Origin: a virus
Taxonomy: Duplodnaviria > Heunggongvirae > Uroviricota > Caudoviricetes
DNA: 48,484 nucleotides
Strand: one strand, 5' to 3'
Virus record (IMG/VR): IMGVR_UViG_2737471860_000008
Span: 1 to 48,484 of that record
Shown here: one piece after another, positions 14,384-39,638 of the stretch
How the letters are laid out: the number at the start of each line of letters is the position of its first letter
Numbering within the stretch: position 1 is the first letter of the stretch
The notes under the pieces: generated by a model
Told to the model about the DNA's origin: nothing
Databases searched by the model: none
What the model saw: the letters and a program-made list of their open reading frames with translations, nothing else
Position numbers and translations under genes: made by a program

Positions 14384-14842
14384 ATGGACGATTCAAGAAA
14401 GCAGTTTGAAGAGTGGTTTAAAAACAAATATCACGTTTCAAGTGACGTGATGAAGATTATGCACATCAAGGTCGAGATTGCATGGGAGGCATGGCAGGCA
14501 TCGCGAGCAGCTATTGAAATAACCGCGCCAAAGTTTATCGACAGCAGAGAAGCATTAGCCAAAGGGTTTACTGTTGATTATTCCAATGGCTTCGGTGATG
14601 CAATGGATGCTTATGAGGAAAACATCCAGCTCTGCTGGAGTCAAAGTGAAGGAGTGAGTATGAGCGAGTTAAAGCCATGCCCGTTTTGCGGAGACAACGC
14701 GATGATTATGCGCATTCCTGAAAGTGGATGGCGATATGGCCAGTGCATGTCATGTTTTAGCAATGGCCCAAAGAGGCCTGATTACGAAGGCGCGGTAATA
14801 GCATGGAACCGGAGAGCAGGAGATGAAGAAACTAACGTTTGA
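14384..14842 (+). CDS. Protein with C-terminal Lar-family (restriction alleviation) zinc ribbon; possible nested start at 14660
   Basis: C-terminus MSELKPCPFCG...CMSC...AWNRRA matches the Lar-type motif; AAGGAG SD precedes the internal ATG at 14660. Confidence 0.55.
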   Translation: MDDSRKQFEEWFKNKYHVSSDVMKIMHIKVEIAWEAWQASRAAIEITAPKFIDSREALAKGFTVDYSNGFGDAMDAYEENIQLCWSQSEGVSMSELKPCPFCGDNAMIMRIPESGWRYGQCMSCFSNGPKRPDYEGAVIAWNRRAGDEETNV

Positions 14843-15239
14843 ACTAAGAAGCCACATCCATCAGCAGAACGCCATTCAAGCCATCCAGCAAATCCTTCCA
14901 GACCCAACCAAACCAATCGTAGTAACCATTCAGGAACGCAACCGCAGCATTCGGCAAAATGCACGCCTTCACGCGATGCTATCTGAAATAAGTAAGAAGG
15001 CTACATATCATGGAAAAGCAAGAAATATTGAGTTTTGGAAGGGGTTATTCGTTTCTGGTTGGCAGATTGCAACCAACCAGCACCCTGAGATTATATCAGG
15101 GTTAGAAGGTGAGCTAATAAACATCAGAGAGAGTACGGCGACTCTATCTGTAAAAAAAATATCCGAAATAATGGACTACATAGAAGCATATTGTGCCATG
15201 AACTCAATTCATCTTAGCGAATGGAGGAATTATGATTGA
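14823..15239 (+). CDS. ninB: NinB-like recombination protein, C-terminally altered by an HNH cassette insertion
   Basis: N-terminus MKKLTFELRSHIHQQNAIQAIQQILPDPTKPIVVTIQERNRS matches lambda NinB as I recall it; the native C-terminal codons (KARWGDRAA) are found at 15805-15834 fused to the HNH ORF. Confidence 0.7.
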   Translation: MKKLTFELRSHIHQQNAIQAIQQILPDPTKPIVVTIQERNRSIRQNARLHAMLSEISKKATYHGKARNIEFWKGLFVSGWQIATNQHPEIISGLEGELINIRESTATLSVKKISEIMDYIEAYCAMNSIHLSEWRNYD

Positions 15240-15834
15240 GGTTTGGGTAGATATCGAAGGGATTCCATTTTATCAGGTTAGCAATAAAGGAAATTTCAGG
15301 TCTATTACGAGGGAAGTTACAGTAACATCAACCAGACAGAGGCCATATAAGAAAATAATTAATGGCACTAGTGTAAAACCATTCAAGTGCAAGTCGACAG
15401 GATATCTTCAAATAAAGGTATACGGTAAGAAATACAGCGCCCACAGGATAGTTGCGAAAGCATTCTGTACAGGGTTTTGTGATGGCTTGGTAGTTAATCA
15501 CAAAAATGGGCGAAGAGATGACAATAGGGCTGATAACCTTGAATGGGTATCACATTCTGAAAACTCAAAACACGGATATAAACAAAATGGAAGAATACCT
15601 ATATCGCTAGGTAAATTTAGTGGTGACCATCCTGCCAGTAAAGCTGTTATTTCTACTGACATGAAAACTGGGGAGGAGGTTTATTATGAAGCAGCTATGG
15701 ATGCTGTCAGAGAAGGATTTGATAGTTCGTCAATTAGTCGTTGCTGTAATGGCGAAAGCTCATATCACAAAGGAAGATTCTGGCGATTTGCAAATGAAAA
15801 AATGAAAGCGCGATGGGGAGACCGGGCAGCATGA
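15232..15834 (+). CDS. HNH homing-type endonuclease, 200 aa, ending in the displaced ninB 3' codons
   Basis: HNH motif [24 protein letters not shown]; NUMOD-like N-terminus; AT-rich relative to flanks; own GGAGG SD. Confidence 0.8.
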
Positions 15835-16004
15835 TGCGATGTTATCGGTGCGGTGAATGCAAAGAAGATAACCGCTTCCGACCAAATCAACCTTACTGGA
15901 ATCGATGGTGTCTCCGGTGTGAAAGAACACCAACAGGGGTGTTACCACTACCGCAGGAAAAGGAGGACGTGTGGCGAGACAGCGACGAAGCATCACCGAC
16001 ATAA
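15831..16004 (+). CDS. Small zinc-ribbon nin-region protein (NinD-like?), 58 aa
   Basis: [22 protein letters not shown]; start overlaps ninB stop (ATGATG/TGA). Confidence 0.5.
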
Positions 16005-16153
16005 TCTGCGAAAACTGCAAATACCTTCCAACGAAACGCTCCAGAAATAAACGCAAGCCAATCCCAAAAGAATCTGACGTAAAAACCTTCAACTACACGG
16101 CTCACCTGTGGGATATCCGGTGGCTAAGACATCGTGCGAGGAAAACAAGGTGA
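15971..16153 (+). CDS. ninE: NinE-like protein, 60 aa
   Basis: [60 protein letters not shown] matches lambda NinE as I recall it. Confidence 0.7.
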
Positions 16154-16859
16154 TTGACCAAAATCGAAGTTACGAACAAGAAAGCGTCGAGCGAGCTTTA
16201 ACGTGCGCTAACTGCGGTCAGAAGCTGCATGTGCTGGAAGTTCACGTGTGTGAGCGTTGTATATATGAATGCTTAAATATGGTGGAACATAATGAGAAAT
16301 ATAAGCAACATAGACGAATTAAGAAATAAATTATCATATGATGATGTTTTAGGTGTACTTAGATGGAAAGTGTCTCCTTCTAATAATGTTAAGGTTGGCA
16401 GTGTTGCTGGTTACATTAGGAGTGATGGTTATAGGATGTTAACTATCGATGGTGTAATTACTTATGCTCACCACGTCATATGGATGATAAATAATGGTGA
16501 GATTCCATTAGGGTATAAAATTGATCATATAAATGGAGTAAGGTCAGATAATAGGCTATCTAATCTTCGATTGGTTACACACCAACAGAATGCACAGAAC
16601 CAAAAGAGAAAAATAACCAATTCGTCAGGAGTGACTGGAGTATATTTCAATAAAGAGAGATGTAAGTGGATTGCGAATATATGCGTAGATGGGCGCACCA
16701 AATATCTTGGAATATTTGCTAGCATCATTGACGCTATTGCAGAAAGGAAGAGGGCAGAAAAAGAACTGGGTTTTCATGAAAACCATGGCAGACCATAACT
16801 GCGCAGAACTGATGAGCGATCCGAATAGCTCGATGCACGAGGAAGAAGACGATGAATGA
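16150..16859 (+). pseudogene. ninF: ninF split by a 539-bp HNH endonuclease cassette (5' part 16150-16260, 3' part 16800-16859 in a different frame)
   Basis: 5' part encodes ...QESVERALTCANCGQKLHVLEVHVCERC and 3' part encodes CAELMSDPNSSMHEEEDDE, which together match lambda NinF as I recall it; 539 bp between them shifts the frame. Confidence 0.6.
16292..16798 (+). CDS. HNH endonuclease with AP2-like DNA-binding region, 168 aa
   Basis: HNH motif IDHINGVRSDNRLSNLRLVTHQQN; AT-rich; lies entirely within the ninF interruption. Confidence 0.8.
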   Translation: MRNISNIDELRNKLSYDDVLGVLRWKVSPSNNVKVGSVAGYIRSDGYRMLTIDGVITYAHHVIWMINNGEIPLGYKIDHINGVRSDNRLSNLRLVTHQQNAQNQKRKITNSSGVTGVYFNKERCKWIANICVDGRTKYLGIFASIIDAIAERKRAEKELGFHENHGRP

Positions 16860-17574
16860 GTTAATAAATGGCAATGCCATCAAAATGACAAGCATTGAAA
16901 TCGCTGAGTTGGTTGGTAAGCGTCATGACAATGTGAAACGTACCATCGAAACGCTGGCTAAAAATGGTGTTATCCGGCTTCCTCAAATTGAGGTTTCCGA
17001 AAGAATCAATAACTTAGGGTTCAATGTTCAGTACGAGCATTACGTCTTCGAAGGCGAACAAGGTAAGCGAGACAGTATTGTCGTTGTTGCCCAGTTGTCG
17101 CCGGAATTCACCGCTCGCCTTGTTGACCGTTGGCGAGAGCTTGAAGACGCTGCGGTTAATATCCCCAAAACTCTACCAGAAGCGTTGCGCCTTGCTGCTG
17201 ATTTTGCTGAGCAGAAAATGCAACTGGAAAACCAGCTCGCAATTGCCGCACCTAAAGTTGAGTTTGCCGATCGCGTTGGCGAGGCCAGCGGAATTTTGAT
17301 TGGAAACTATGCAAAGGTTGTTGGTATTGGTCCAAACAAACTGTTTGCATGGATGCGCGATCGCAAAATCCTTATTGCTTCAGGTTCCCGGCGCAATGTG
17401 CCAATGCAGGAATATATGGATCGCGGCTATTTCACCGTAAAAGAAACAGCGGTCAACACAAATCACGGAATACAGATATCGTTCACCACAAAAATCACCG
17501 GGCGTGGTCAACAGTGGCTGACCAGAAAGCTGCTCGATAACGGAATGCTGAAAGTAACAGGGGAGGCTGCTTAA
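16852..17574 (+). CDS. Rha/Ant-family phage regulatory protein (antirepressor-like), 240 aa
   Basis: N-terminal Rha-like region (MTSIEIAELVGKRHDNVKRTIE) and C-terminal ANT-like region. Confidence 0.65.
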   Translation: MNELINGNAIKMTSIEIAELVGKRHDNVKRTIETLAKNGVIRLPQIEVSERINNLGFNVQYEHYVFEGEQGKRDSIVVVAQLSPEFTARLVDRWRELEDAAVNIPKTLPEALRLAADFAEQKMQLENQLAIAAPKVEFADRVGEASGILIGNYAKVVGIGPNKLFAWMRDRKILIASGSRRNVPMQEYMDRGYFTVKETAVNTNHGIQISFTTKITGRGQQWLTRKLLDNGMLKVTGEAA

Positions 17575-19989: not shown

Positions 19990-20453
19990 GCAGAGTAACC
20001 GCGATTATCTCCGCTCTGGTTATCTGCATCATCGTCTGCCTGTCGTGGGCGGTAAATCATTACCGTGATAACGCCATCGCCTACAAAGAACAGCGTGATA
20101 AAAAAGTCAGTGAGCTGAAGCAGGCGACCGCCACCATTACTGACATGCAGCAGCGCCAGCGTTCTGCTGATGCACTCGATGCTAAATACACGAAGGAGTT
20201 AGCTGATGCGAAAGCTGAAAATGATGCTCTTCGGCGCAAGCTTGATAATGGTGGTCGGGTGTTCGTCAAAGGAAAATGCCCTGTGTCATCCTCAGCCGAA
20301 ACCTCCAGCGCCTCCGGCATGGGCAATGATGCCACCGTCGAACTCTCTGCAGTTGCTGGACGAAACGTTCTCGGTATCCGGTCCGGAATCATCAGCGACC
20401 AAACAGCCATGAGGGCGCTGCAGGAATACATCACCACGCAGTGCCTGAAGTAA
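19986..20453 (+). CDS. Rz: i-spanin Rz, 155 aa
   Basis: N-terminal TM and coiled-coil matching lambda Rz N-terminus; C-terminal half divergent. Confidence 0.85.
20206..20412 (+). CDS. Rz1: o-spanin Rz1 lipoprotein, embedded in the +1 frame of Rz, 68 aa
   Basis: Lipobox LIMVVGC, proline-rich [11 protein letters not shown]; entirely nested within Rz. Confidence 0.8.
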
Positions 20454-20510
20454 GGCATTACAGAGCCACTTCCAGAGGTGGCTCGATAATGTCACTACGA
20501 GGTAAGGACT

Positions 20511-21251
20511 ATGGCAAAACCGGACTGGGGAGCACTGCAACACCAGTTCCTCGCCGAGCATGCCAAAACAGGAATATCCCCGAAAGACTGGTGCGCAGCG
20601 CAGGGACTGAATTATTCATCTGCGAAACGCTATATCAAAGTAACGACTTACGGTGCGAATTCGCAAAAAAAAAGTGCGAACAAATCTGCGAATTCGCAGA
20701 AGGAGAAAGGCGGGGCCAATAAAAACGGGAAGGTGAAAAAAAACCAGCCCGACACAGGCGCCCGCTCAAAATCTCCAGAAACGAAACCGATACGCGGATC
20801 GCGCACTGCTCCGCCGACGAACGCCTTCCAGCCTGGCAACCAGAACGCATTAAAGCATGGTGGCTATGGCCGCCGGATGCTGCTCTCTGACGCCATCACC
20901 GAAGATGCCCAGATGCTCACGCTCGACGATGAGCTTTTCTGGCTGCGAGCGGCGAGCCTGACAGCGGCAGAGAATATCGGGCGCTGGCAGACAGAGCTGG
21001 AGACAGCCGCCAGCGAGCAGGCCAAAGATCTGCACGACCTCATCTCTCAGGCGCAGAAAGCCATGCATCGCAACACTGCGCGCATTGAGTCGCTGGAGTA
21101 CACCAAGGCGGCGATTATCAAGCAGCGCGTTGATGCCGCTTACCGCGAAGCCGCGACCGAAAAGGTTGAACTCGAAATTGATGTACTGAAAGACGGCGAC
21201 AAGGATAACGCGATCGTCGTGCATAACTCGCTGCCAATACCGGGAAGATAA
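20511..21251 (+). CDS. Terminase small subunit (DNA-binding), 246 aa
   Basis: Immediately upstream of the large terminase; N-terminal HTH-like region, low-complexity basic linker. Confidence 0.6.
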   Translation: MAKPDWGALQHQFLAEHAKTGISPKDWCAAQGLNYSSAKRYIKVTTYGANSQKKSANKSANSQKEKGGANKNGKVKKNQPDTGARSKSPETKPIRGSRTAPPTNAFQPGNQNALKHGGYGRRMLLSDAITEDAQMLTLDDELFWLRAASLTAAENIGRWQTELETAASEQAKDLHDLISQAQKAMHRNTARIESLEYTKAAIIKQRVDAAYREAATEKVELEIDVLKDGDKDNAIVVHNSLPIPGR

Positions 21252-21254
21252 ATC

Positions 21255-22586
21255 ATGGCCGACATTTACCTACCCACGCTACACAACGGGCAGTTAACGG
21301 TCTGGTCTGATTCCTGGGATCACCAGTTGAATGCGGTTCGCTGTGGTCGACGCTGGGGGAAAACCTTCATGCTGTCGAGCGCCGCGGTGACCTACGCAAC
21401 GTCGCAGTTTCGGCGCCCGGGCATGGACATCGAGCTGGGCGGCCGGGTCGGTATCTTCACTGCCGAGTATCGCCAGTACCAGGAGATCTACGACAAGCTG
21501 GAAGAAATCCTGTTGCCGCTGAAAAAGAGCTTCAGCCGGCAGGAAAAGCGCCTGCTGCTGAAGAACGGCGGGAAGATTGACTTCTGGGTCACCAACGACA
21601 ACAAACTGGCCGGTCGTGGTCGTGAGTACGAAATTATCCTGATCGATGAGGCGGCTTTTACCAAGTCGCCTGAAATGCTGAAGGAAATCTGGCCGAAGTC
21701 GATTAAGCCGACGCTGCTGACGACAAAGGGCCGGGCTTACGTATTCTCAACGCCTGACGGTGTGGACGAAGAAAATTTCTTCTATGCCATCTGCCATAAC
21801 AAAGACCTCGGCTTCCATGAGCATCACGCGCCGACGTCATCAAACCCCTTCGTTCCTCCCGAGGAGCTGGAGAAAGAGCGACAGAACAACGATCCTCGCG
21901 TTTTCCGGCAGGAGTTCCTGGCCGAGTTCGTCGACTGGTCCGCTGCGTCGCTTTTCGACGTCCGCAAATGGTTTGAGGGTGAAAACCAGGATCAGCCTGT
22001 CGATTACCCTGAGATGTGCCAGGCCGTTTTCGCTGTCATGGATACCGCCGTTAAGGGCGGTACTGAGCACGACGGCACGGCGGTGGTTTACTACGCCGTA
22101 GACACCCGGCCCGGAATTCAGCGCCTGACCATTCTTGACTGGGATGTGGTGCAGATCGACGGCGCGCTGCTGGAAGAGTGGATTCCGTCTGTTTTCACCA
22201 GGCTGAATGAGCTATCCGGCCAGTGCGTCGCTGTAAATGGCAGCCTCGGCGTTTTCATCGAAGACGCCAGCATGGGCAGCATCCTCCTGCAGAAAGGTGA
22301 AAGCCTGGGATGGCCGGTCAACAAAATTGAATCCGCCCTGACCAGCAAAGGGAAGGACGAACGCGCCATTATGGCCTCTGGGTATCACTACCGCGGGCTG
22401 GCGAAAATATCCCGATACGCCTACGAGAAGACGGCCGTCTTCAAGGGCGAAACAGCAAACCATCTGCATAAGCAGGTGTCACGATTCCACCTTGCCGATA
22501 AGAACGCGCACAAGCGCGCCGACGATTTGCTGGATGATTACACCTACGGGCTGATCATCGCGTTCGGTAGCGGCGACGCACTCTAG
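21255..22586 (+). CDS. Terminase large subunit, 443 aa
   Basis: Walker A-like CGRRWGKTF, Walker B ILIDEAAF, C-terminal nuclease-like region. Confidence 0.85.
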   Translation: MADIYLPTLHNGQLTVWSDSWDHQLNAVRCGRRWGKTFMLSSAAVTYATSQFRRPGMDIELGGRVGIFTAEYRQYQEIYDKLEEILLPLKKSFSRQEKRLLLKNGGKIDFWVTNDNKLAGRGREYEIILIDEAAFTKSPEMLKEIWPKSIKPTLLTTKGRAYVFSTPDGVDEENFFYAICHNKDLGFHEHHAPTSSNPFVPPEELEKERQNNDPRVFRQEFLAEFVDWSAASLFDVRKWFEGENQDQPVDYPEMCQAVFAVMDTAVKGGTEHDGTAVVYYAVDTRPGIQRLTILDWDVVQIDGALLEEWIPSVFTRLNELSGQCVAVNGSLGVFIEDASMGSILLQKGESLGWPVNKIESALTSKGKDERAIMASGYHYRGLAKISRYAYEKTAVFKGETANHLHKQVSRFHLADKNAHKRADDLLDDYTYGLIIAFGSGDAL

Positions 22587-22597
22587 CGAGAAAACCA

Positions 22598-24013
22598 ATG
22601 AACGAAGATGATATCGCAATCGGCAGTTGCTCGCCGGAGCTGATCACGCTCCTGGACAGCGATGACATTCAGCCGGGTATGTCGGCTGGCTATCAGACCT
22701 GCAAAACGATTTACCTCTTCCACCCGTTGGGCGGGAAAATGGTAGATCGCCCGATCAAGATGGCGATGAACGAGTCGCGCACGGTTCACATTTCGCAGGC
22801 GTATGGCATTGAGCAGCGTCTCCGCGATGCATTTGAGCGGGAGTGGAAAGCACTGGGCGCCGATAAGCACATCGCTAATGCGGCGCGCATCTCTCGCATT
22901 TACGGTGTTTCGGCGATCGCAATGCTGGTTGATAACCAGGAGCCGTCCTCTGCGGTGGACTACCGCACGCTGTATAAGCACAACGTGACATTCAACATTC
23001 TCGACCCGCTGAACACTGCCGGAAGCATCGTCCTGAACCAGGATCCGAACGCGCAGGACTTTCAGAAGGTCGACGGGATCAGAGTGGCGGGCAAGCCGTA
23101 TCACAAATCCCGCTGTGTTGTGCAACAGAACGAGGACCCGATTTATCTGGCCTATAACTCTGCTGCCTTTGGCTTTACCGGTCGCAGCGTTTACCAGCGC
23201 GCTCTGTTCCCGCTGAAATCCTTCATCCAGACCATGCGCACCGATGACATGGTTTCCGTGAAGGGTGGCTTGCTGGTAACGAAGATTCAGGGACCGAGCT
23301 CAGTCGTCAACAACATGATGCAAAAGCTCAGCGGCATCAAACGAATGATGCTGAAGCGAGGGAAGACAGGCGAAGTCCTGCAGATCGGCGCAAATGACAG
23401 CATCGAATCCATCGACCTGAGCAACCTGGAAAAGCCGCTCGACTCCTCCCGGAATCACATTCTGGAGAATATCGCTGCGGCAGCTGACATGCCGGCTATC
23501 ATTCTGAACTCGGAAACATTCGCCCAGGGCTTCGGCGAGGGGACGGAAGACGCTCGATCTGTTGCAGTCTACATCGACAACATCCGCGAGTGGCTTGAGC
23601 CGCTGTATGACTATTTCATCCGTATTTGCCAGTATCGCGCCTGGAGCATTGAGTTTTTCAATTCTCTGCGTGCTGACTTTCCGGAGCTGAAAAACACCTA
23701 CAGCCTGTACTTCTCCTCATGGATTAACAACTTCGAATATCGCTGGCCGTCATCCCTGAAAGAGCCGGAAAGCGAAAAAGTGAAGGTCGACGAAATCCGG
23801 TTTAAGGCGATCGTCAGCATGCTGGAAGTGCTGCTTCCACAGGTCAACACGGATGATGAGAACCGCGCTCTGCTTATCGAGTGGGCGCAGACCAACGCGA
23901 ACGCTAACGAAAGCCTGTTCCCGCAGCGGCTCGATCTCGATATCGACTCTCTAAAGGCTAATCGGCCTGAACAGCCACGGGATGAAGAGCCCGGAGGCGA
24001 GATGATGCTATGA
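22598..24013 (+). CDS. Portal protein (Mu gp29-like), 471 aa
   Basis: Size and position between large terminase and MuF-like gene. Confidence 0.7.
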   Translation: MNEDDIAIGSCSPELITLLDSDDIQPGMSAGYQTCKTIYLFHPLGGKMVDRPIKMAMNESRTVHISQAYGIEQRLRDAFEREWKALGADKHIANAARISRIYGVSAIAMLVDNQEPSSAVDYRTLYKHNVTFNILDPLNTAGSIVLNQDPNAQDFQKVDGIRVAGKPYHKSRCVVQQNEDPIYLAYNSAAFGFTGRSVYQRALFPLKSFIQTMRTDDMVSVKGGLLVTKIQGPSSVVNNMMQKLSGIKRMMLKRGKTGEVLQIGANDSIESIDLSNLEKPLDSSRNHILENIAAAADMPAIILNSETFAQGFGEGTEDARSVAVYIDNIREWLEPLYDYFIRICQYRAWSIEFFNSLRADFPELKNTYSLYFSSWINNFEYRWPSSLKEPESEKVKVDEIRFKAIVSMLEVLLPQVNTDDENRALLIEWAQTNANANESLFPQRLDLDIDSLKANRPEQPRDEEPGGEMML

Positions 24014-24831
24014 AGACTTTCACGCGCACCGTACGCGAGGCGGTGAAGTTCTTTCTGCGCAATGGCTACACCTCGCGGCAGGAGCTGGAGCAATGGCAGG
24101 CCATTATCCGGCAAGCGGCCGAAAGCGAAACTGATGACGACTACATGAGCATGGTGTCCGATCGGTTGCGTAAGACCTATGACATGCAGGTGAGCAAGGC
24201 TGGAGCGCTGGAGCGCCACAAGGGGCTTTCACGCTTCACGCTGAACTACATGGAGCCGAAGTTACGCAGCGAGCTGGATCGCCGCATCCTGGCCAGCGCT
24301 GACCTGATAAAGCTGAATCGCAAGAAAGCCATCGACACTACTCTGTCGCGGTTTAGCGGATGGGCCAGCAGCATTCCCTCAGCAGACAGCATTGCGCTGA
24401 CCGGCATTCAGGGAACGATGCGGGAGAAGGCGGCGCACATTCAGAAGGCCGCCGAGAAGGTGGACTATGAAGCGCGCCGCGTGATGATTGACCAGAGCCA
24501 TAAGCTGATCGCCAATATCGACAACATCATCGCGACGGGCAACAACGCGATTGCTGCCGAGTGGCACAGTCACTGGCGCCAGGCAGGTTATGACTACCGG
24601 GAAGACCACAAGGAGCGGGATAAGCTGGTCTATCTCATCCGCGGAAACTGGGCGCAGAAAAATGGCTATGTCAAAGTTGGTCCCGCCGGCTATCTCGACG
24701 AAATCACGCAGCCTGGCGAAGAGGTTTTCTGTCGGTGCTACGTCACCTATCTGTACAACCTCCGCAGCATTCCCGAGGACATGCTGACCCAGAAGGGCCG
24801 CAAGTTCCTGGAGTCCATGAAAGCAGCATAG
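24010..24831 (+). CDS. Head morphogenesis protein (Mu F-like), 273 aa
   Basis: Position after portal; overlapping start/stop with portal. Confidence 0.6.
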   Translation: MKTFTRTVREAVKFFLRNGYTSRQELEQWQAIIRQAAESETDDDYMSMVSDRLRKTYDMQVSKAGALERHKGLSRFTLNYMEPKLRSELDRRILASADLIKLNRKKAIDTTLSRFSGWASSIPSADSIALTGIQGTMREKAAHIQKAAEKVDYEARRVMIDQSHKLIANIDNIIATGNNAIAAEWHSHWRQAGYDYREDHKERDKLVYLIRGNWAQKNGYVKVGPAGYLDEITQPGEEVFCRCYVTYLYNLRSIPEDMLTQKGRKFLESMKAA

Positions 24832-24840
24832 GAGCATTAA

Positions 24841-26457
<1,617 letters not shown>

Positions 26458-26472
26458 CGGGAGCTCTGAAGC

Positions 26473-27333
26473 ATGGCTAATTTATCTCTTAACCCGATGG
26501 CGACCACGAATGCCGCTGGTTCCTTCGGTGTGCAGTCTGATGGCTTCATTCAGGGCGTTGCTCTGGATGATCCGGCAAATCGCTTTAACCTGGCGTCCGG
26601 CACTGTCGCCGCCACCGAAACCAAACCGCTGTGGGGTGGCCTGCCGGTTGCCGAGTTGCTGCCCGGCGTGAACTCCAGTACTCGCGGGTCGACTATTCGT
26701 CGCGCTGTATCACTGGCTGAGCTAGAAGGCTTCACCGTCTTCAACCAGGCCCACAACGGGCTTACCACTCCGCAATCACCGGTTCCGCTGTATGCGTCCG
26801 GCATGAGCGTTTCATTCTATCGCCTTGGCTCCAACATGCGCGTTCCGCTGAAAGCTTCAGCGCAGGTGGTAGCGCTCGGAACCGCTGGCGCATCGGTGAA
26901 AACGCCGCTGGCGTGGGACTTCGTCAATAACCAGGTGACCACCGCAGCCGCGGCGGCTTTTGCCGGTGCTGACATTGCCACAACCGCTGTTACCTATTCG
27001 AACGGCGTGGCCACCGCCACCACCGCCTCTGCGCATGGACTGACCGCTGGCCAGTACGTGAAGATCAGCGGTGTAACTCCGGCGGCCTATAACGGAACCG
27101 TCGTTGTGCTGACCGTGCCGACAGCGACAACCTTCACCTATGCGCCTGCCAGCGCGCCGGGCGGTTCCGCAACCACGCAGGGCAATATCGGTGCTGTGGC
27201 TCAGGCAGACATCACCCTGCCGGTGAAAGTCATCTCCATCGAGAGCGGGAACTCGAAAACTGTCAGCTATGACAGCGCTACGGGCTTCCTTACCTGGAAC
27301 AACACCGACAGCTGCGCGCTGGTCTTACTTTAA
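26473..27333 (+). CDS. Capsid-associated structural protein (decoration-like) carrying a ~45-aa HG.T.GQ...YNG...TFTY domain, 286 aa
   Basis: Position between scaffold and major capsid; Ala/Thr/Gly-rich. Confidence 0.5.
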   Translation: MANLSLNPMATTNAAGSFGVQSDGFIQGVALDDPANRFNLASGTVAATETKPLWGGLPVAELLPGVNSSTRGSTIRRAVSLAELEGFTVFNQAHNGLTTPQSPVPLYASGMSVSFYRLGSNMRVPLKASAQVVALGTAGASVKTPLAWDFVNNQVTTAAAAAFAGADIATTAVTYSNGVATATTASAHGLTAGQYVKISGVTPAAYNGTVVVLTVPTATTFTYAPASAPGGSATTQGNIGAVAQADITLPVKVISIESGNSKTVSYDSATGFLTWNNTDSCALVLL

Positions 27334-27346
27334 TCGGGAGCTTTAA

Positions 27347-28378
27347 ATGGCTGCAATTACCCCCAGCTACACCATCGTCAACCCGTCGTACATTGCGCCG
27401 GAGTTGATCATTGGTTACCAGCAGGCGTCCGGTGCGTTCGAAACCATCGCCAGCGGTAACCCGCAGGTCCGCCTTGGCGTAGGCGACCAGTACGTTTATA
27501 TGCGCCGCCTGGATATCCGCACCCAGGTGACCTCAAGCCAGTCCGGCAACGCCAACCAGCTGCCGAGCGTGGCGCTCGAGGCGCGCATGATCTCCACTCC
27601 AACCTACCTGTTCCGCTGCCGTGGTATCTACGATCACCACGACACCGCGGCGGCCGGTAACTGGAACGTGGCTCTGCCAGAAGCTCAGCGTCTCGGCATG
27701 CGTCAGGGCATCTTCCAGCAGTTGCGTTCTGCGCTGCTGTACGGCATGAACCCGGCAGGCGGCGAAGGTCTGCTGAACACCGCAGGCGCGACCACCGAAA
27801 CCCTGCCGCCGGACAGCAACAGCAACACCACTGTGCTGACCTACGACCATGGACAGATGGCTGTCTATCTGCTGGGCCATGTACAGGCCGCGCTGACCCG
27901 CACCATGCAACTGGGTCGCCAGCAGCGTGTTGTTATCCTCGGTCCGCAGCGAGTGCTGGGCGCGATGGAGATTCAGCAGATCGTTCAGCTGACATCTTAT
28001 CAGCGTCCTGGCGGCGGTACTGATACCGTCGGCGGCACCGTGAAAGAGGTTCTCCGTGGCGCGAATGTTCAGGTTGACTGGGTGTACGACGACACGCTGA
28101 TCGGCGCCGGTGCCGGCGGTACTGACGCGGTGGTTATCACCGTCCCGGAAGTGGAAGTGCCGATGGCCAACTCCACCGTGAACACCAACGAATTCGCCAA
28201 ACTGAGCCCGTCTCTGGCGGCGAACGCCCTGATGTTCACCGACATGGCGGCACCGATGGAAATCCCGACGCCAATCCCCGGGGGCGCTATCGACGTGCTG
28301 TCAGAAATGCGCTCTACGGCTGGCTGGGCAGTCCGTCCGGAAGCTATCACCATCCTGTCGATGAAATACAGCGACTAA
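27347..28378 (+). CDS. Major capsid protein (probable), 343 aa
   Basis: Size, position after scaffold/decoration genes, followed by a strong intrinsic terminator. Confidence 0.6.
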   Translation: MAAITPSYTIVNPSYIAPELIIGYQQASGAFETIASGNPQVRLGVGDQYVYMRRLDIRTQVTSSQSGNANQLPSVALEARMISTPTYLFRCRGIYDHHDTAAAGNWNVALPEAQRLGMRQGIFQQLRSALLYGMNPAGGEGLLNTAGATTETLPPDSNSNTTVLTYDHGQMAVYLLGHVQAALTRTMQLGRQQRVVILGPQRVLGAMEIQQIVQLTSYQRPGGGTDTVGGTVKEVLRGANVQVDWVYDDTLIGAGAGGTDAVVITVPEVEVPMANSTVNTNEFAKLSPSLAANALMFTDMAAPMEIPTPIPGGAIDVLSEMRSTAGWAVRPEAITILSMKYSD

Positions 28379-28402
28379 AACTCGAAATTGAGAAGTGCTT
28401 AA

Positions 28403-28438
28403 GCCTCTGCATGGTTCGCTGTGCAGGGGCTTTTTTAC
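28403..28438 (+). terminator. Rho-independent terminator after the capsid gene
   Basis: Hairpin GCCTCTGCA-loop-TGCAGGGGC followed by TTTTTT. Confidence 0.6.
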
Positions 28439-28450
28439 GAAGGGTAAACA

Positions 28451-28933
28451 ATGAAACTGTACATCGCCAACACTACCAAGCAGCGCCACATCTTCACTTT
28501 CCGCCAGCTGGAAACCGGGCGCCTTCGCCAGATCCCCATTGAGCACGGCTCACAGATGCTGGTTCTGGATGGCTCGACCGAAGAAGTCGAAGCGGTTATT
28601 CAGCATCATCAGGTTTACGGTCTGGTTGACTCAACCAAAATCGACCAGAGCCAGGCATTTGTCGGCCTGTGCTACAGCATCAACAAACCCGTTTCTGCCA
28701 GCGTTATTGAGAAAACCATTCGCGATAACGATGGTCATCTGACCCGCGGGGCTCATAACCGCCGGCAGGCATCCGTCGCCGCGCTGGATAACACACTGCG
28801 CGAAAGCGGTATCGGCTACGAAGGTGACATGGAATTCAGCGCAGAGCAGGCCAAGGGGCGCGATGACCATTCAGACGACCCGACCATCAACGAAAAAATT
28901 GTCACGCCGAAAGCCGGGAGCAAGAAGAAATGA
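28451..28933 (+). CDS. Head completion/connector-like protein, 160 aa
   Basis: Position only. Confidence 0.4.
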   Translation: MKLYIANTTKQRHIFTFRQLETGRLRQIPIEHGSQMLVLDGSTEEVEAVIQHHQVYGLVDSTKIDQSQAFVGLCYSINKPVSASVIEKTIRDNDGHLTRGAHNRRQASVAALDNTLRESGIGYEGDMEFSAEQAKGRDDHSDDPTINEKIVTPKAGSKKK

Positions 28934-29358
28934 CCACCAGTCTGTCGGGATTCATCGAATTCGTTCGATCTGATATGGGCATCACCCCCGACAAGGTTCC
29001 CGACGACTCGCCGTCTTTTTCTCTCGCCTATGGCGGCGCCATTGAATGGGTTAACCCGGACTTCGCGTGCGTTATGCCTAACATGTACAGCATCGCGGTT
29101 TATAACCTTGGGGCATCGTTTCTCATCAATTACGGGACAGAGGCTGTGTTTGCTGAGTTCCGTAAACAATATGGGCTGAATGACTTCAAAGCCGGTGTTA
29201 TCACGGGAGCCGGGGATAACTCTACCAGCGCACAGCGCCTGGTCCCTGATTTCTTCAAAGACCTGTCGCTGGCAGATCTGCAGATGCTCCAGGACCCGTG
29301 GGGCCGTCGCTACCTGATGTTCGCTCAGCAGTTCGGGAGCCTGTGGGGTCTGACATGA
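28930..29358 (+). CDS. Head-tail adaptor-like protein, 142 aa
   Basis: Position; overlapping start/stop. Confidence 0.4.
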   Translation: MTTSLSGFIEFVRSDMGITPDKVPDDSPSFSLAYGGAIEWVNPDFACVMPNMYSIAVYNLGASFLINYGTEAVFAEFRKQYGLNDFKAGVITGAGDNSTSAQRLVPDFFKDLSLADLQMLQDPWGRRYLMFAQQFGSLWGLT

Positions 29359-29795
29359 TCACCTTTCATCTGGGCGTTATCGATATCCCCTACGAGGACG
29401 AGGACGAGGACACCACGACGGGGAGCGTAGCGGAAGAGCTGGAAGCGAGGTATCAGATTATGCAGACGTTCTTTGACCGCTACGGGAACGACATCGCTGA
29501 GCTGATGAGCAAAGACCTGGCCGCAGCTCTTGAAAACATGTTCGCTGGCGCGCCGCCGGCAAAAGACCCGCTCGCTGAGTCAATGTCCAAAGTTCACGAT
29601 CTCTTTGTCGGCTTCCTCGATAACACCGAGATGAACGGCCTCCCTGGCGTACCAACGCGCCGCGCGCTTGAGGGAATATCGAAGCGCTTTAAAGGCAAAA
29701 ATGGGCCGCCGCGCCCTTCGTTCATTGACACAGGAACCTATCAGGCAGCTATGCGCGCCTGGGTAAGCGGGGTGATGAATGCCTTCCCTGAGTGA
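29355..29795 (+). CDS. Head-tail joining/neck protein, ~146 aa (start moved to MITFHLG)
   Basis: ATG overlaps upstream stop (ATGA); position. Confidence 0.4.
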   Translation: MITFHLGVIDIPYEDEDEDTTTGSVAEELEARYQIMQTFFDRYGNDIAELMSKDLAAALENMFAGAPPAKDPLAESMSKVHDLFVGFLDNTEMNGLPGVPTRRALEGISKRFKGKNGPPRPSFIDTGTYQAAMRAWVSGVMNAFPE

Positions 29796-30717
29796 GTTAC
29801 AGAACGCCAAAACCGAGCTTAACGCTACCCTGACGCAGGGGCTGGATGATCTGAGCCGGTTCCAGGTGGTCACGTTCACGAAGTACATCAGAAAGGTGCT
29901 TCCGCTCGATGGCTTCGTGTTCTGGGTGAAAGCCTCGGTCCTGTCTGACGATCCGAACAATGAGCCGGATACGGTGGATGTGAAGGGCTATCTGCACCTG
30001 ACGACAGAAACCATTCAGGACGACGAGCAACTTTACGATCGCAACGTGGTGACGTTCACCGCGCAGGAGGACATCGACCCGTTTAACGACATCGGGTCAG
30101 AGGTGCTGTACATCGGCGAGTTTTTTGGCGTTCAGTTCTCGTTCTCCCGTCGTACCGGGCTGAATGAGCCGGCGAACCTGTACCACTACACCGGAGAGGC
30201 AATTTTCCCGCACATGCGGTCGCAGATCATCAACTCTGCGGATGACATAGACCTCTCCGACGTGGTGGTGTCGAGTTCTTTGCCGATTTGGCTGGCCCTG
30301 AATCAGTACATGCCGATGTTCCCGGCGATGCTCTCAACGCAGAACCTTTCACCGCCTTATGCAACGGTGAAATGCAGCAATACGTCACCGATCGCCGGCG
30401 CTTTCTATCTGGACGAGAAGCAAAACCAGTATCAGCTGGTATCGGAAGATGTCACGCTTTCGGTCACCGGCCTGCGTAACGCCAGCATTGAAGACTTTGT
30501 GCGGTATGTGCAGGACTACACGACCGGCGATGCCCCGGAGATGGGGATCATGAATATTCCCGTCGTGCAAGATGAGCGAGTCACTCAGAACGAGCTCAAC
30601 ATCATTGCCATGCGTAAGACCATCAAATTCAAAATCAATTACTACCAGCAACGGATGCGTAACTTAGCGCGCCAGCTGATCACGTCTGCAATTCCGTCCA
30701 TTGACCCGGAGAAATAA
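29779..30717 (+). CDS. Tail completion/neck structural protein, 312 aa
   Basis: Position before sheath. Confidence 0.45.
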   Translation: MPSLSELQNAKTELNATLTQGLDDLSRFQVVTFTKYIRKVLPLDGFVFWVKASVLSDDPNNEPDTVDVKGYLHLTTETIQDDEQLYDRNVVTFTAQEDIDPFNDIGSEVLYIGEFFGVQFSFSRRTGLNEPANLYHYTGEAIFPHMRSQIINSADDIDLSDVVVSSSLPIWLALNQYMPMFPAMLSTQNLSPPYATVKCSNTSPIAGAFYLDEKQNQYQLVSEDVTLSVTGLRNASIEDFVRYVQDYTTGDAPEMGIMNIPVVQDERVTQNELNIIAMRKTIKFKINYYQQRMRNLARQLITSAIPSIDPEK

Positions 30718-30721
30718 GTAA

Positions 30722-32116
30722 ATGGCAATTGTTAATATTAACGTGTCGGTGACGAATCCGCCGAAGCCCTCGCAGTTGTTAAAGTCCGGGGCGATGATTT
30801 CTATGGGCGGCACGACGCTGAATGCCGGTGAATATCAGCTGCTGACCAGTGAAACCGACCTGGCCGACATCCTCGCACCGGCGAAATCCATCTCAACGCT
30901 CGCCTGGGCTACTGGCGTGGTAACCGTCACGCTGGCTGCCGCTCACGGATGGACTAACGGGTCACAGGTCCCGGTGATTATCTCCGGAGCGACTCCGGCG
31001 GGGTACAATGGCGCCTATACCGCTACGGTGACAGGTACCAACACCTTCACCTATCCGCTGACGACCAACCCCGGCACCGCAACGGCAATGGGGACGGTAA
31101 AAACGGTAGTTCAGAACGAAATTTCCCAGATGAATACCTCGTTCTGGGCCCAGGGTAAAACGCGGGCTGTTTATGTGCTGGAGCTGGGCGATGTGTCCAT
31201 GGAGGCAGCTATCGCAGCGCTGACAACCTTCATCGCTGAAGACGTCGCCCTGGGCAACACCTACCAGAAGTTTTTCTCCTATCTGGTGCCGCGCGAATGG
31301 GATTCGGTCGATGAATTTAAAACCCTGACCGGGCTTTATACCTCGCCGGGCAGCCTGGTTTACTTCTTTGTCACCACAACGATCGCGACCTATCAGGATT
31401 GGGTCGCGACCAAAAACAAAACTGTCTTTGCCGGCGTCGAGGCTCCGGATATTCCGGCGAGCGAGTTTTCCATGGCCGGCCCGTTCCAGTCGTCCCTGGC
31501 AAACGACCCGGGGTCGAGCAACATGGTGCCGCCGATGTCGTACCGCTTTATGTACGGCCTGACTGAGTACCCACTGGAAGGCAACAGCGCGCTGCTGAAA
31601 TCGCTGCAGGACAACAACATCAACTACATCGGCACCGGCGCAGAAGGTGGTCTCAGCAATAAAGTGCTGTTCACCGGCCGCATGCTCGACGGTAACCCGT
31701 TCAACTACTGGTATTCGGTGGCGTGGACGGCGATCAACCTTGAGCTCGACCTGGCGAATGAAATTATCAACGGCTCCAACACGACCGTTAACCCGCTGTA
31801 CTACGAGCAGAAGGGCATTGACCGCCTGCAGCGTCGCGCTCTGAAAACCTTGCGTAATGGCATCAGCTACGGGCTGATCCTCGGTCGCGTCATTGACACG
31901 CAACTGACGCAGGAAGATTTCAACACTGAGTATGACAAAGGCACTTACGCCGGCAACGCCGTGATCAACGCCGTGCCGTTCAGTAACTACAACAGCCTGA
32001 ACCCCTCCGATTACCAGGAAGGCAAATATAACGGGCTGAGCGCCGTCATGACGCCGCGCCGCGGCTTCGAATCCATCACGTTTAACGTGAACGTAACGAA
32101 CTTTGTAGGGGCGTAA
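30722..32116 (+). CDS. Tail sheath protein (contractile tail), 464 aa, with inserted ~45-aa HG.T.G...YNG...TFTY domain
   Basis: Size and order sheath-tube-chaperone-tape measure as in Mu/P2-type tails. Confidence 0.6.
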   Translation: MAIVNINVSVTNPPKPSQLLKSGAMISMGGTTLNAGEYQLLTSETDLADILAPAKSISTLAWATGVVTVTLAAAHGWTNGSQVPVIISGATPAGYNGAYTATVTGTNTFTYPLTTNPGTATAMGTVKTVVQNEISQMNTSFWAQGKTRAVYVLELGDVSMEAAIAALTTFIAEDVALGNTYQKFFSYLVPREWDSVDEFKTLTGLYTSPGSLVYFFVTTTIATYQDWVATKNKTVFAGVEAPDIPASEFSMAGPFQSSLANDPGSSNMVPPMSYRFMYGLTEYPLEGNSALLKSLQDNNINYIGTGAEGGLSNKVLFTGRMLDGNPFNYWYSVAWTAINLELDLANEIINGSNTTVNPLYYEQKGIDRLQRRALKTLRNGISYGLILGRVIDTQLTQEDFNTEYDKGTYAGNAVINAVPFSNYNSLNPSDYQEGKYNGLSAVMTPRRGFESITFNVNVTNFVGA

Positions 32117-32119
32117 AAA

Positions 32120-32557
32120 ATGGCGAACCCATTAGTACCGCAGGGCTTTCTTAACCGCGTACGCGGGGCTCTTTCCGTCACGGATACACCGGCGCTGAAC
32201 GTTTCGGCGTCGTACCTGGCAAAGGACGGCATTAGCCTGCGTCCGGATGGCCCAGCTACCGACATCATCCCTACGATGACCGGCACCGTCGGCAGCCAGG
32301 CGCCGTATCAGCAGGTAACGCTGACCGTGCATCTCCTGAAAACTCAGGGGCTGGGCGAAAGCTACCGGCAGCGCTTTTTAACCGATACGTCGCTGGGTGA
32401 AATCGTGGTGACGCCGGATGCAACGACGTTCGGCAATATCACGCTGCTCAACTGCTACCTGGTCAACTTCAACGAGCTGGCTTTCAGCGGGATGGACCCG
32501 GCTTTTGTGGTAACCATCAGCGGCTATATGGTCACCAACGACAACATGTGGGTGTAA
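32120..32557 (+). CDS. Tail tube protein, 145 aa
   Basis: Position directly after sheath. Confidence 0.5.
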   Translation: MANPLVPQGFLNRVRGALSVTDTPALNVSASYLAKDGISLRPDGPATDIIPTMTGTVGSQAPYQQVTLTVHLLKTQGLGESYRQRFLTDTSLGEIVVTPDATTFGNITLLNCYLVNFNELAFSGMDPAFVVTISGYMVTNDNMWV

Positions 32558-32560
32558 TGC

Positions 32561-33133
32561 ATGAAAATTGACAAGAAACTGAATCTGGTCACCAGCGTTA
32601 CCCGCGAAGACGGCTCGATCGTATACCTGCATGTGACGCCATTCCCCTATGAGGTGGTGGAAGAACACTGCATCCTGCTGGGGAACCTGTTCACCAAATT
32701 CATCTCGCAGGTTGGTGGTCTTGGCGCCGCCAGAATCGCCGCGATGATGCTGAGGCAGAGCCTGAAAGCGGAAATCGATAACGGTCGGACAGGTCCGAAC
32801 ATCGTTGATGAAATTCAGCGACTGACGGTCGTTATCCATAACGTCGGCGGCCAGTGGAAAACCACGCCTCTTGAGGTGGCATTCAAGCAGGGGGTTATCG
32901 ACCCTGATGAGTATCGCGAGGTCGAAGGCGAAGTGGTTTTTTTTATGGTTTCCTCTGCTATTCAGAAGGCAAACCTGATCGCGCCGACCGTGGGAACGGT
33001 GATCAAAATGTACGATGGGCAACTAACCTCATCGAGCGTTACGGCGTTCCGCGATTCGTTGCAGACGTCGAAGCCGGTTACCGATACCCCGACCCAGAAT
33101 GCCCCGCCGGAAACGTCATTTATACCCTCTTAG
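32561..33133 (+). CDS. Tail assembly chaperone-like protein, 190 aa
   Basis: Position between tube and tape measure. Confidence 0.4.
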   Translation: MKIDKKLNLVTSVTREDGSIVYLHVTPFPYEVVEEHCILLGNLFTKFISQVGGLGAARIAAMMLRQSLKAEIDNGRTGPNIVDEIQRLTVVIHNVGGQWKTTPLEVAFKQGVIDPDEYREVEGEVVFFMVSSAIQKANLIAPTVGTVIKMYDGQLTSSSVTAFRDSLQTSKPVTDTPTQNAPPETSFIPS

Positions 33134-33256
33134 ACTGGGCGTCTAATGAGGGCTTCTGGCAGGTGATAAGGGAGATCACCGGCGAGGAGTATGCCAGCCC
33201 GGCGCAGTACCGGCAGCGCTACCTTCTCGCCGCGCTCAAAGAAAGAGGTTTCTTCA

Positions 33257-35161
33257 ATGGTAGCTAAGTCGATCGTCGACATTGACGTAAATGACGACAA
33301 GTTTGTCGCGTTTATGGAAAGGTTTCGCGAGTACCAGAGCGCGCTGGATGATTTACCGGAAGCCTGGCGGGTAGCTGCCGTTGGTATTGGCGAAAGCAGC
33401 AAGCAGACCGAAAAGGCCAAAGGTGAGGCGAAGGGGTTAGGCGCGGAGTTTAATGCCGTGGCCGAGGCCATTCTGACCATCAACAGCGGTATCGATCGGC
33501 TCAATACCAACCTGGAAGACTCGAAGAAAAAGCAGGACGAATTCAACAAAAGCACCCGATCTGCGAAAGGCTTCCTCAGCGATGCGACGAAAGACGCTAA
33601 ATCGCTGGCAGGTCATATCAAGGAAGCGACGGCCAGCCTTCTTTCCTGGGGTGGTATTGTCGGGATATTTACCGGCGTCCTTGGCGTTGGCGGCCTGTTT
33701 GGCATCAACCGCCTGGCGGCCACCACCGGCGCCCAGCGGTTTACCTCTCTCGGGCTCGGGACGAGCATCGGCGCGCTGGATTCCACCGCCATAAACTACC
33801 AGAAAGTGCTGGGCAATCCGGCGGGGACGCTGGGCGCTATCCGCGATTCGCAGATGGACCTGTCGAAGCGCTGGACGTTTCAGGCGATGGGGATTAACAA
33901 TCCCGACCAGGACCCGGCCAAACTGCTCCCGCAGATGATCCGTAATGCGCGAGATATCTTCGTGCAGAACGGCAGCACGCTACAGGGCGCACAGGCGCAC
34001 GGCCTGACAAACTTCTTTACGCTGGACGACCTGAACCGCTTCAAAAACATGAGCGATGAGGAGATCACCGCCATGGAGAAGCGCGCGCAGCAGGATGCGC
34101 GCATGTTGCAAATTACCGACCAGCAGGCGCGCCAGTGGCAGGATTTTAACGTCCAGCTCGACTACAGCAGCCAGAGCATCAGGAACACTTTTGTGCGCGG
34201 CCTGGGTCCTCTCACGCCGCAACTGAGCAAACTGTCTGATGCGCTGGCAGGCGCGATCGATACCGTCCTGAAATCCCCCGAACTCGGCAAGTGGATTGAT
34301 GCGCTTGCCGGTGGTATTGAGCGGTTCGGTAACTACCTGGCTTCGCCGACGTTCAAAAGCGACGTTGAGTCGTTTATGTCGGGCGTTGAGCGGCTGGGGC
34401 GCGTCATCATGAAAGTGCTCGGCTGGCTCGATGGCGGATCGTCGGCGATGGACGATATCAAGTCCGGGTCCTCATTCCTGAATAATGACGTCCAGACCGA
34501 TGCCGGCGGAAACCACTTCGTAAAAGGCGGCATCAGCGACCCGAACACGCCAGCAGCGTCAAAATGGCTGGCACGCCATCTGTACAGCTTGACTGGTACG
34601 GCACCTGCCGAGTACGACCAGTATTTTCTGGATGCAGCCAAGAAATACAACGTCGACCCGCGCTGGCTTAAAGCCATTGCCGCGGGGGAATCTTCATGGG
34701 ACCAGAACGCGCAAGGGCCTGTTACAAGGTCTGGTAAGCGTGCATTAGGCTTGATGCAAATTATGCCTGATAACTTTCAGCCTGGTGAGAAGCCGTTTGA
34801 CCCGCGGGACAACATCATGGCTGGCGCCCGAGTTTTTTCCTGGGCGATGCAGAGCGCGAATGGTGATCTCGACGAAGCGCTGCGTTATTACAACGGCGGA
34901 AGCCGCCGCGGGAGTGCAGAAAACAGGGCTTATCCCGGCAGAATCAGGGAGAAGTATGCCGCGATGTATGGAGCACCGAAGAGCAATGATGCTACCGGCG
35001 TCGATAGTTCAGAGATTGCCAAGAACACCTCGAAAACTAACCAGCTCCTGCAACAGATCGTAGATGGGAAAGGCGGAAGAGGCGGGAGCGGTGACGTTGT
35101 TATTTATAACAACACCGGCGGGAATGCCGTGGTAACTTCAGCGCAATTGGGGGCGAGGTAA
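33257..35161 (+). CDS. Tape measure protein with lytic transglycosylase (SLT) domain, ~634 aa (start moved to MVAKSIVD)
   Basis: Coiled-coil N-terminal half; SLT-like motif in C-terminal part (GESSWDQNA...GLMQIMP...YNGG). Confidence 0.6.
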   Translation: MVAKSIVDIDVNDDKFVAFMERFREYQSALDDLPEAWRVAAVGIGESSKQTEKAKGEAKGLGAEFNAVAEAILTINSGIDRLNTNLEDSKKKQDEFNKSTRSAKGFLSDATKDAKSLAGHIKEATASLLSWGGIVGIFTGVLGVGGLFGINRLAATTGAQRFTSLGLGTSIGALDSTAINYQKVLGNPAGTLGAIRDSQMDLSKRWTFQAMGINNPDQDPAKLLPQMIRNARDIFVQNGSTLQGAQAHGLTNFFTLDDLNRFKNMSDEEITAMEKRAQQDARMLQITDQQARQWQDFNVQLDYSSQSIRNTFVRGLGPLTPQLSKLSDALAGAIDTVLKSPELGKWIDALAGGIERFGNYLASPTFKSDVESFMSGVERLGRVIMKVLGWLDGGSSAMDDIKSGSSFLNNDVQTDAGGNHFVKGGISDPNTPAASKWLARHLYSLTGTAPAEYDQYFLDAAKKYNVDPRWLKAIAAGESSWDQNAQGPVTRSGKRALGLMQIMPDNFQPGEKPFDPRDNIMAGARVFSWAMQSANGDLDEALRYYNGGSRRGSAENRAYPGRIREKYAAMYGAPKSNDATGVDSSEIAKNTSKTNQLLQQIVDGKGGRGGSGDVVIYNNTGGNAVVTSAQLGAR

Positions 35162-35871
35162 TGGGATTCACACGTGAAATGTATAAGCTGGGTTTTGAAA
35201 TATCCCCAGTAATACTTTGCGGAGGGATAGCGCAGGCCATTCCTGGAGGAATGCTCCCGATCGTCGCTTTGACGCAGAGCGCGAGCTTTGTTACGGGACT
35301 GCTTGGAGGAGCCATAAACCTAACCGATCTGGATAAATATTTCTGCCACTGGCGCCCGGTTCAGGGCGCCACAATGGTTGATTATGAAATTGCCAGATAC
35401 CCTTTCGCCAACCAGGTAGTAGCTGCGAACGCCTTGCTTGCTCAGCCTTTGCGCGTTTCGTTGGTAATGGAGGCCCCGGTCAATGAAAACACCGGGGCGA
35501 TGACAAAGCTCGTCACTATGAGTGCTTTGCAGTCTGTCCTTCAGGCGCATTCTAACTTAGGCGGCACGTTTATCGTCGCCACCCCATCCGTTATCTATAG
35601 CAACTGCATTTTGCGTGTCGTGAGGGACATCACTTCTGGTAATGATCCATTACCACAGCGTTCATGGATATGGGATTTCGAGCAGCCACTGATAACCGAT
35701 AATGGTGCAGAGCAGGCTGTGAACAATTTTTTAAACAAGATTGGCGCCGGGGATATGGTAACCGACCCATCCTGGACTAATACCGCCAATTCTCTTGGCA
35801 ACACGCCTCTCGGGAGCTCTGTATCGGAAGCAATAACCGGCCTATTGGGTAAGTTGGGGGTAGGGCCATGA
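35161..35871 (+). CDS. Tail/baseplate assembly protein, 236 aa
   Basis: Position after tape measure. Confidence 0.4.
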   Translation: MGFTREMYKLGFEISPVILCGGIAQAIPGGMLPIVALTQSASFVTGLLGGAINLTDLDKYFCHWRPVQGATMVDYEIARYPFANQVVAANALLAQPLRVSLVMEAPVNENTGAMTKLVTMSALQSVLQAHSNLGGTFIVATPSVIYSNCILRVVRDITSGNDPLPQRSWIWDFEQPLITDNGAEQAVNNFLNKIGAGDMVTDPSWTNTANSLGNTPLGSSVSEAITGLLGKLGVGP

Positions 35872-39637: not shown

Positions 39638-39638
39638 C

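Follow-up and report, generated by a model that had tools for sequence, protein, structure and literature searches.

A compact HNH-AP2 endonuclease gene between two codons of ninF in lambdoid phages, probably spread by homing

Most work on free-standing homing endonucleases has concerned virulent T4-like phages. Free-standing HNH homing endonuclease genes (HEGs) that split phage genes include mobE, in nrdA of Aeromonas phage Aeh1, and mobA, in gene 60/39 of T4, and hairpins that sequester the ribosome-binding site (RBS) have been reported for mobE and I-TevI (PMC2988022). Here we describe an insert in ninF of a lambdoid phage that shares several features with these genes. We found no description of this element in the literature on ninF and homing endonucleases or on the nin region and HNH genes.

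The DNA analyzed (hereafter the window) is the whole 48,484-nt stretch of IMG/VR record IMGVR_UViG_2737471860_000008, which represents a lambdoid temperate phage with an overall GC content of 0.502. Its nin region is ordered ninB, an HNH gene, ninD, ninE, ninF, a roi-like antirepressor gene, a DUF1364 gene, rusA and a Q-like gene. This region is lambda/HK620-like and typical of E. coli. The structural and late region (window positions 20000-40000) is ~95% identical to the Klebsiella phages vB_Kpn_Chronis, RothC and RothD, so that the phage is a mosaic across host genera. In lambda the nin region is dispensable, the nin5 deletion being viable.

We placed the junctions of the insert by reading the sequence and aligning it to the uninterrupted ninF of lambda and HK620 (Table 1). 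The initial annotation had ninF run up to the codons for CERC at 16260 and resume at 16800, and the alignment confirms both positions to the base. The last codon of the 5′ part is TGT (16258-16260, ending ..VHVCERC), and ninF resumes at TGC 16800 (CAELMSDPNSSMHEEEDDE) to reach its stop codon at 16857-16859. Between codons 37 and 38 of the gene lies the HNH/AP2 cassette, in agreement with the 539 bp of AT-rich DNA first described (16261-16799); its GC content is 0.353, compared with 0.495 and 0.50 in the two ninF parts. Three reading frames are involved, with ninF starting at 16150 (mod 3 = 1), the HNH ORF at 16292 (mod 3 = 2) and the 3′ part at 16800 (mod 3 = 0), and the two halves of ninF are indeed in different frames, as the initial annotation had stated. 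Hundreds of phages and prophages carry intact ninF alleles that match both halves at 96-99% identity, so the split gene is no chance resemblance; a comparison with intact alleles had been proposed as a check, and uninterrupted alleles that match both halves do exist.

The insert consists of 31 nt that contain a Shine-Dalgarno (SD) sequence, an ORF of 168 codons and one more base, leaving 32 nt outside the ORF. Immediately upstream of it, GTTGT replaces ACTGC. Of these bases, G16256 (-5) and T16257 (-4), which change CAC to CGT (His to Arg), are exclusive to insert-bearing alleles. T at -1 had also been considered as an insert-specific mark, which proved wrong: T16260 is present in some empty alleles too, with CACTGT occurring in 18 empty alleles from IMG/VR.

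Table 1. Features of the interrupted ninF and of the neighboring ninB cassette, in window coordinates.
Feature	Coordinates	Strand	Basis
ninB-associated HNH gene (NUMOD4 + HNH_3) at the ninB 3′ end	15232-15834		Pfam
ninF 5′ part, codons 1-37, GTG start, both CxxC pairs	16150-16260	+	Aligns with lambda and HK620 ninF; Pfam NinF E = 6e-12
Predicted NinF′ ORF, 59 aa: 37 ninF codons and 22 insert codons (IYECLNMVEHNEKYKQHRRIKK, then stop)	16150-16329	+	RefSeq: 'protein NinF'
GTTGT instead of ACTGC	16256-16260	+	Allele comparison
Predicted RNA hairpin, SD in loop, AUG paired in stem	16256-16309	+	Folding versus shuffles
Inserted cassette, 539 bp, GC 0.353	16261-16799	+	Terminal repeats, target duplication: none
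SD-like GGTGGA, 5 nt 5′ of the HNH start codon	16281-16286	+	Read from sequence; equivalent in L159 is AGGAG
Putative free-standing HNH-AP2 homing endonuclease gene, 168 aa	16292-16798	+	Pfam HNH_3, phrog_99, AF2 model
HNH_3 nuclease motif, aa 58-102	16463-16597	+	Pfam, alignment of relatives
Predicted AP2-type DNA-binding domain, about aa 112-160, three strands and a helix	16625-16771	+	Relatives, AF2 model
Possible 27-aa ORF, MKTMADHN and ninF tail, overlapping the HNH 3′ end	16776-16859	+	RefSeq: 'protein NinF'
ninF 3′ remnant, 19 codons and stop, out of frame with the 5′ part	16800-16859	+	Sequence, alignment

The 168-aa protein encoded by the insert matches Pfam HNH_3 (E = 1.2e-19, over the curated cutoff) and phrog_99, annotated 'HNH endonuclease' (E = 3e-70). 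Its C-terminal third matches Pfam AP2 weakly (E = 0.0085, under the cutoff); six of nine aligned relatives match AP2, and an AF2 model of the protein (pLDDT 84) aligns with the AP2/ERF domains of TEM1 and AtERF1 with a probability of 1.0 and an rmsd of 1.5-2.9 Å. The closest solved structure to this model is I-HmuI (Foldseek E = 1.8e-4), the intron-encoded HNH nicking endonuclease of SPO1 (PDB 1U3E), to which the HNH motif aligns weakly at the sequence level. Five residues of the HNH motif (D78, H79, N87, N91 and N100) do not vary among relatives, and a C-terminal GFHENHG motif is likewise invariant in the HNH-AP2 relatives. With both domains present, the ORF is, as judged from domain matches and predicted fold, a probable member of the HNH_3 + AP2 homing endonuclease class. 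The 3′ end of the insert (MKTMADHN) was also considered as a vestige of a donor ninF. We rejected this reading: since GFHENHG is conserved at the C-terminus across the family, the right end of the insert codes for the endonuclease.

The junction between ninF and the HNH gene is predicted to form an RNA hairpin, with a folding energy well below that of shuffled sequences (z = -3.2; none of 200 shuffles fold as well). In its basal stem GUUGU, the last five nucleotides of the ninF 5′ part, pairs with GCAAC in the ORF, and GTTGT ranks second among 64 variants for hairpin stability. The structure resembles the RBS-sequestering hairpins of mobE and I-TevI, and could hypothetically provide translational control of the HNH gene. 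It is not conserved in L159, the diverged copy described below. A promoter or terminator belonging to the cassette itself gave no signal over shuffle expectation.

We next consider the consequences for ninF, which the initial annotation had judged to be probably inactivated. The upstream part reads into the insert, which supplies a stop codon at 16327-16329. The resulting NinF′ retains both CxxC pairs, that is, all four zinc-ribbon cysteines, and covers the entire 25-position Pfam NinF model. It is not a full-length NinF (PF05810, ~56-58 aa, a zinc ribbon followed by an acidic tail), as the acidic tail of 19 residues is encoded in another frame. The loss is confined to this tail, and the earlier judgment goes further than the sequence shows. 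As read from the sequence, ninF is truncated, not destroyed, with a predicted product of 59 aa, and its inactivation is possible. To our knowledge NinF has no known function, and given that lambda can dispense with the nin region, inactivation would matter little. A stretch of 22 stop-free codons has a probability of ~0.14 by base composition, and L159 carries a different tail, so nothing suggests that the new C-terminus is under selection.

The roi-like gene downstream starts at 16852, within the 3′ remnant of ninF, which also contains the SD sequence for it, GAGGA (16839-16843); the retention of both may explain why an insertion is tolerated here. In-frame ATGs of the 3′ half are found at 16776 and 16785, neither with an evident SD, and the 27-aa ORF that begins at the first of them had no match in a Pfam search. 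Because this downstream piece comprises 19 codons without a clear start signal, a functional gene in pieces of the Aeh1 nrdA type appears unlikely for ninF.

The insert is absent from 50,697 deposited phage genomes, in which the nearest proteins are ~50% identical and all are below 60%. It is present in 45 of 5426 complete E. coli genomes, with 44 of the 45 copies at least 99% identical and every copy positioned under 'protein NinF'. Its presence is therefore sporadic and at a fixed site, within otherwise homologous conserved alleles: about 2000 of these genomes have a match to the ninF region, and ~2% of them carry the insert. The exact 5′ junction occurs in 28 IMG/VR contigs, and a metagenome scan recovered four contigs with near-identical copies and, beyond these, distant homologues. 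The HNH-AP2 class as a whole has thousands of phage homologues. At 90% identity the 168-aa protein falls in a cluster of 369 members, outside which one relative is 85% identical and all others are at most 56% identical.

The 85% relative (L159, positions 1-909; Logan SRR25288770) is a diverged orthologous ninF::HNH. Its 5′ junction is identical (TGT/ATATATG, where / denotes the junction) and lies in a diverged ninF (..IHVCEKC). L159 lacks the CAELMS codons, its HNH ORF runs to 176 aa through the diverged ninF tail in another frame, and the next gene is ybcO/DUF1364. That a diverged ninF shares this 5′ junction indicates that the association with ninF predates the recent sweep in E. coli. L159 is the sole diverged copy found: a GTDB protein scan yielded no further ones, and a search with a degenerate junction pattern returned chance matches in unrelated taxa only.

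RefSeq already annotates pieces of the element. At three loci (L004 3337-3763, L005 3737-4160 and L010 2385-2760), RefSeq/PGAP calls the HNH gene a partial pseudogene, overlapped by a 50-51-aa ORF named 'protein NinF'. We rejected the pseudogene call for E. coli E2348/69, 14EC007 and E308, where the 168-codon ORF is intact. The calls of 'two NinF proteins' and a 'partial HNH pseudogene' are annotation artefacts that arise from a single intact mobile gene.

The population pattern of the insert bears on how it moves. Across 34 insert-bearing loci we distinguished at least 12 upstream and at least 8 downstream sequence contexts, the latter including roi, ninG, another HNH and DUF1364, and the insert is present on lambda-type and P22-type ninF 5′ ends alike. 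Its nucleotide diversity is 0.48%, with 16 haplotypes in 31 copies, in a sample whose isolate prophages are not independent of one another. In the adjoining 134 bp of conserved ninF, diversity is 2.7% in carriers and 3.1% in 122 empty alleles, and in carriers these immediate flanks are ~5.5 times as diverse as the insert. Seven flank haplotypes are common to filled and empty alleles, a sharing to which free recombination among lambdoid phages could contribute, and frequent polymorphisms at -80, -76, -67, +33 and +37 segregate in both classes alike. No allele indicative of precise loss (an empty site with CGTTGT) occurs in IMG/VR or the E. coli genomes.

The HNH ORF is intact in 31 of 32 complete copies. 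Its 21 variable sites, 12 synonymous and 9 non-synonymous, correspond to a dN/dS of ~0.2, and this deficit of non-synonymous changes (binomial p = 3e-4) shows that the ORF is under purifying selection. Together, the low diversity of the insert, its many contexts, its intact ORF and its shared flanks point to a young functional element that entered many older ninF alleles at one site, a pattern typical of homing and indirect evidence for it. Its spread among E. coli prophages seems to be recent.

The only copy with a broken HNH frame (IMGVR_UViG_3300023488_000025) has an early stop at codon 87. The stop, the pattern of mismatches and a 3′ ninF junction shifted by one base point to a 1-bp insertion within the insert, and this copy is an example of decay. 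Separately, E. coli E2348/69 (NC_011601.1) carries a filled ninF (L004, ~735.8 kb) and an empty ninF (L283, ~1056.7 kb) in two prophages. The empty allele has two synonymous changes, TGC to TGT at -1 and CTG to CTT at +12. Among the 18 empty IMG/VR contigs with T at -1, 13 share the T at +12 with the E2348/69 allele, and some -1 T contigs derive from samples that also yielded filled alleles. The -1 T/+12 T combination may represent a resistant target variant, or may have arisen by chance.

In light of this pattern, we consider it likely that the 539-bp insert is a minimal free-standing HEG of the HNH_3 + AP2 class, lodged between ninF codons 37 and 38 and spread by homing. The gene would be transcribed as part of the delayed-early pR operon, with translation from an SD of its own. 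Its target would be an empty lambdoid ninF in the same cell, brought there by mixed infection or by the encounter of a phage with a prophage. The enzyme would nick or cut the highly conserved ninF around GTGTGTGAGCACTGC/TGCGCAGAACTG (/ denotes the insertion point), and repair of the break by recombination off the HEG-bearing allele would copy the cassette along with a few flanking bases. The carrier allele would be protected by the insert itself, and possibly also by the adjacent change of CAC to CGT. The cost to the phage would be low: ninF lies in a dispensable region, a 59-aa zinc-ribbon product would still be made, and the remnant retains the RBS of the next gene. Two observations count against homing. 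With 0 of 50,697 deposited phage genomes carrying the insert, no spread in lytic growth is observed, and E2348/69 holds both a filled and an empty ninF, the latter of which may or may not be cleavable.

A more far-reaching version of this proposal is doubtful on present evidence. It holds that the element is actively homing in temperate lambdoid phages, where it has swept many E. coli ninF alleles with co-conversion tracts of a few bases; that its translation is limited by a hairpin built partly from bases of the host gene, the change of CAC to CGT extending the stem; and that it acts as an interference weapon against HEG-less lambdoid competitors at induction or in mixed infection. If true, it would place an intronless-homing system within the most tractable phage genetics available, that of lambda.

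Several lines of evidence bear on alternatives to a homing HEG. Many phage HNH endonucleases are intron-encoded, and the insertion point lies exactly between codons, as might be expected if a self-splicing group I intron or an intein restored ninF at the RNA or protein level. However, an Rfam scan of 14500-17500 at E ≤ 10 returned no intron family, only two chance matches to eukaryotic families. The non-coding part of the insert amounts to just 31 + 1 nt, and because 32 bases are too few for a ribozyme, the insert is not a group I intron; the initial annotation had likewise argued that there was too little non-coding DNA for one. Features of an intein are also absent: Pfam finds HNH_3 alone and no Hint domain, the two halves of ninF are in different frames, and the HNH ORF occupies a third, with stop codons. 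The intron or intein reading is already effectively refuted, and we assign it almost no probability. Features of a transposon are absent from the insert as well, which has no terminal repeats or target duplication beyond chance 8-mers and no transposase domain.

The insert could instead be a passive mosaic module, which entered ninF once by illegitimate recombination and was later carried about among lambdoid prophages solely by ordinary homologous recombination, with an endonuclease that is inactive or irrelevant to its spread. Such a history would fit the pervasive mosaicism of nin regions and the presence of filled and empty alleles together in E2348/69, but it requires repeated exchange within 33-67 bp of the insert. 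The ~5.5-fold lower diversity of the insert relative to its immediate flanks argues against it too, and an intact ORF under purifying selection is unexpected of a dead passenger; we regard passive carriage as improbable. The same purifying selection would be compatible with a domesticated phage function, in which the HNH protein is not selfish but associated with the terminase, as is HK97 gp74, or serves as a nuclease in defence or competition, and it is general knowledge that HEGs can confer a competitive advantage in mixed infections. Yet the HNH gene is far from the packaging genes, lies inside and not beside another gene, and is carried by only ~2% of genomes with a ninF-region match. Furthermore, it combines HNH_3 with AP2, falls in phrog_99, and has relatives that are often annotated as homing endonucleases. 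We therefore find domestication very improbable and favor a selfish HEG that spreads by homing.

A second HNH gene of this nin region lies at the 3′ end of ninB. The HNH proteins of the ninF and ninB cassettes are 27% identical over 113 aa and fall in different PHROG families, and only the ninB protein has NUMOD4, which upholds the earlier claim that the two insertions are independent. Both are AT-rich HNH cassettes in a nin gene that leave an original 3′ remnant downstream; they differ in HNH family, and in that ninB stays full length whereas ninF is not restored. Homology to lambda ninB in the window is confined to 14822-14947 and 15803-15834, and 14823-15834 holds, between lambda-like ends, an AT-rich divergent replacement of the 3′ two-thirds of ninB together with the NUMOD4-HNH gene. 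By Pfam, ninB is full length despite the cassette, and the HNH ORF reads into the old ninB 3′ end (..KARWGDRAA). From its sequence, the ninB cassette resembles a HEG that moves together with a recoded segment of the gene it targets. The same arrangement is found in many E. coli prophages.

Further HNH genes are present in related prophages, at 4153-4719 of L005 (E. coli 14EC007) and at 1775-2386 and 4762-5286 of L003 (AMSCJX03). Their sites include the gap between the helicase gene and ninB and that between DUF1364 and rusA. One of them starts with MAKPARRRC, the N-terminus of NinG, and is thus another intragenic insertion. The nin region seems, on these gene positions, to be a hotspot for several HEG families.

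The element is of the type expected from an established class of mobile gene and leaves the current understanding of that class unchanged. It is valuable chiefly as a homing system amenable to experiment: a clearly delimited, recently spreading HEG with a defined, highly conserved target in the lambda nin region makes homing, co-conversion and possible interference between phages testable by lambda genetics.

Compared with other bacterial and phage HNH-AP2 endonucleases (phrog_99), the ninF element has the same two-domain architecture and C-terminal GFHENHG and differs in location, as none of the examined relatives outside its own cluster, bar the 85% copy, lies in ninF. It resembles I-HmuI in its elongated multi-domain architecture; unlike that intron-encoded enzyme, with its NUMOD/HTH C-terminal modules, it has AP2, and the two are ~22% identical. 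Like mobE and mobA, it is a free-standing HNH gene inside a coding sequence, without an intron or intein, and the upstream piece of the split gene ends at a stop supplied by the insert; as with mobE, a hairpin is predicted in the RNA around the endonuclease RBS. In contrast to both, the gene that it splits is tiny and non-essential, the downstream piece is 19 codons without a clear start signal, the DNA-binding module is AP2, and the element resides in a temperate lambdoid phage instead of a T4-like one.
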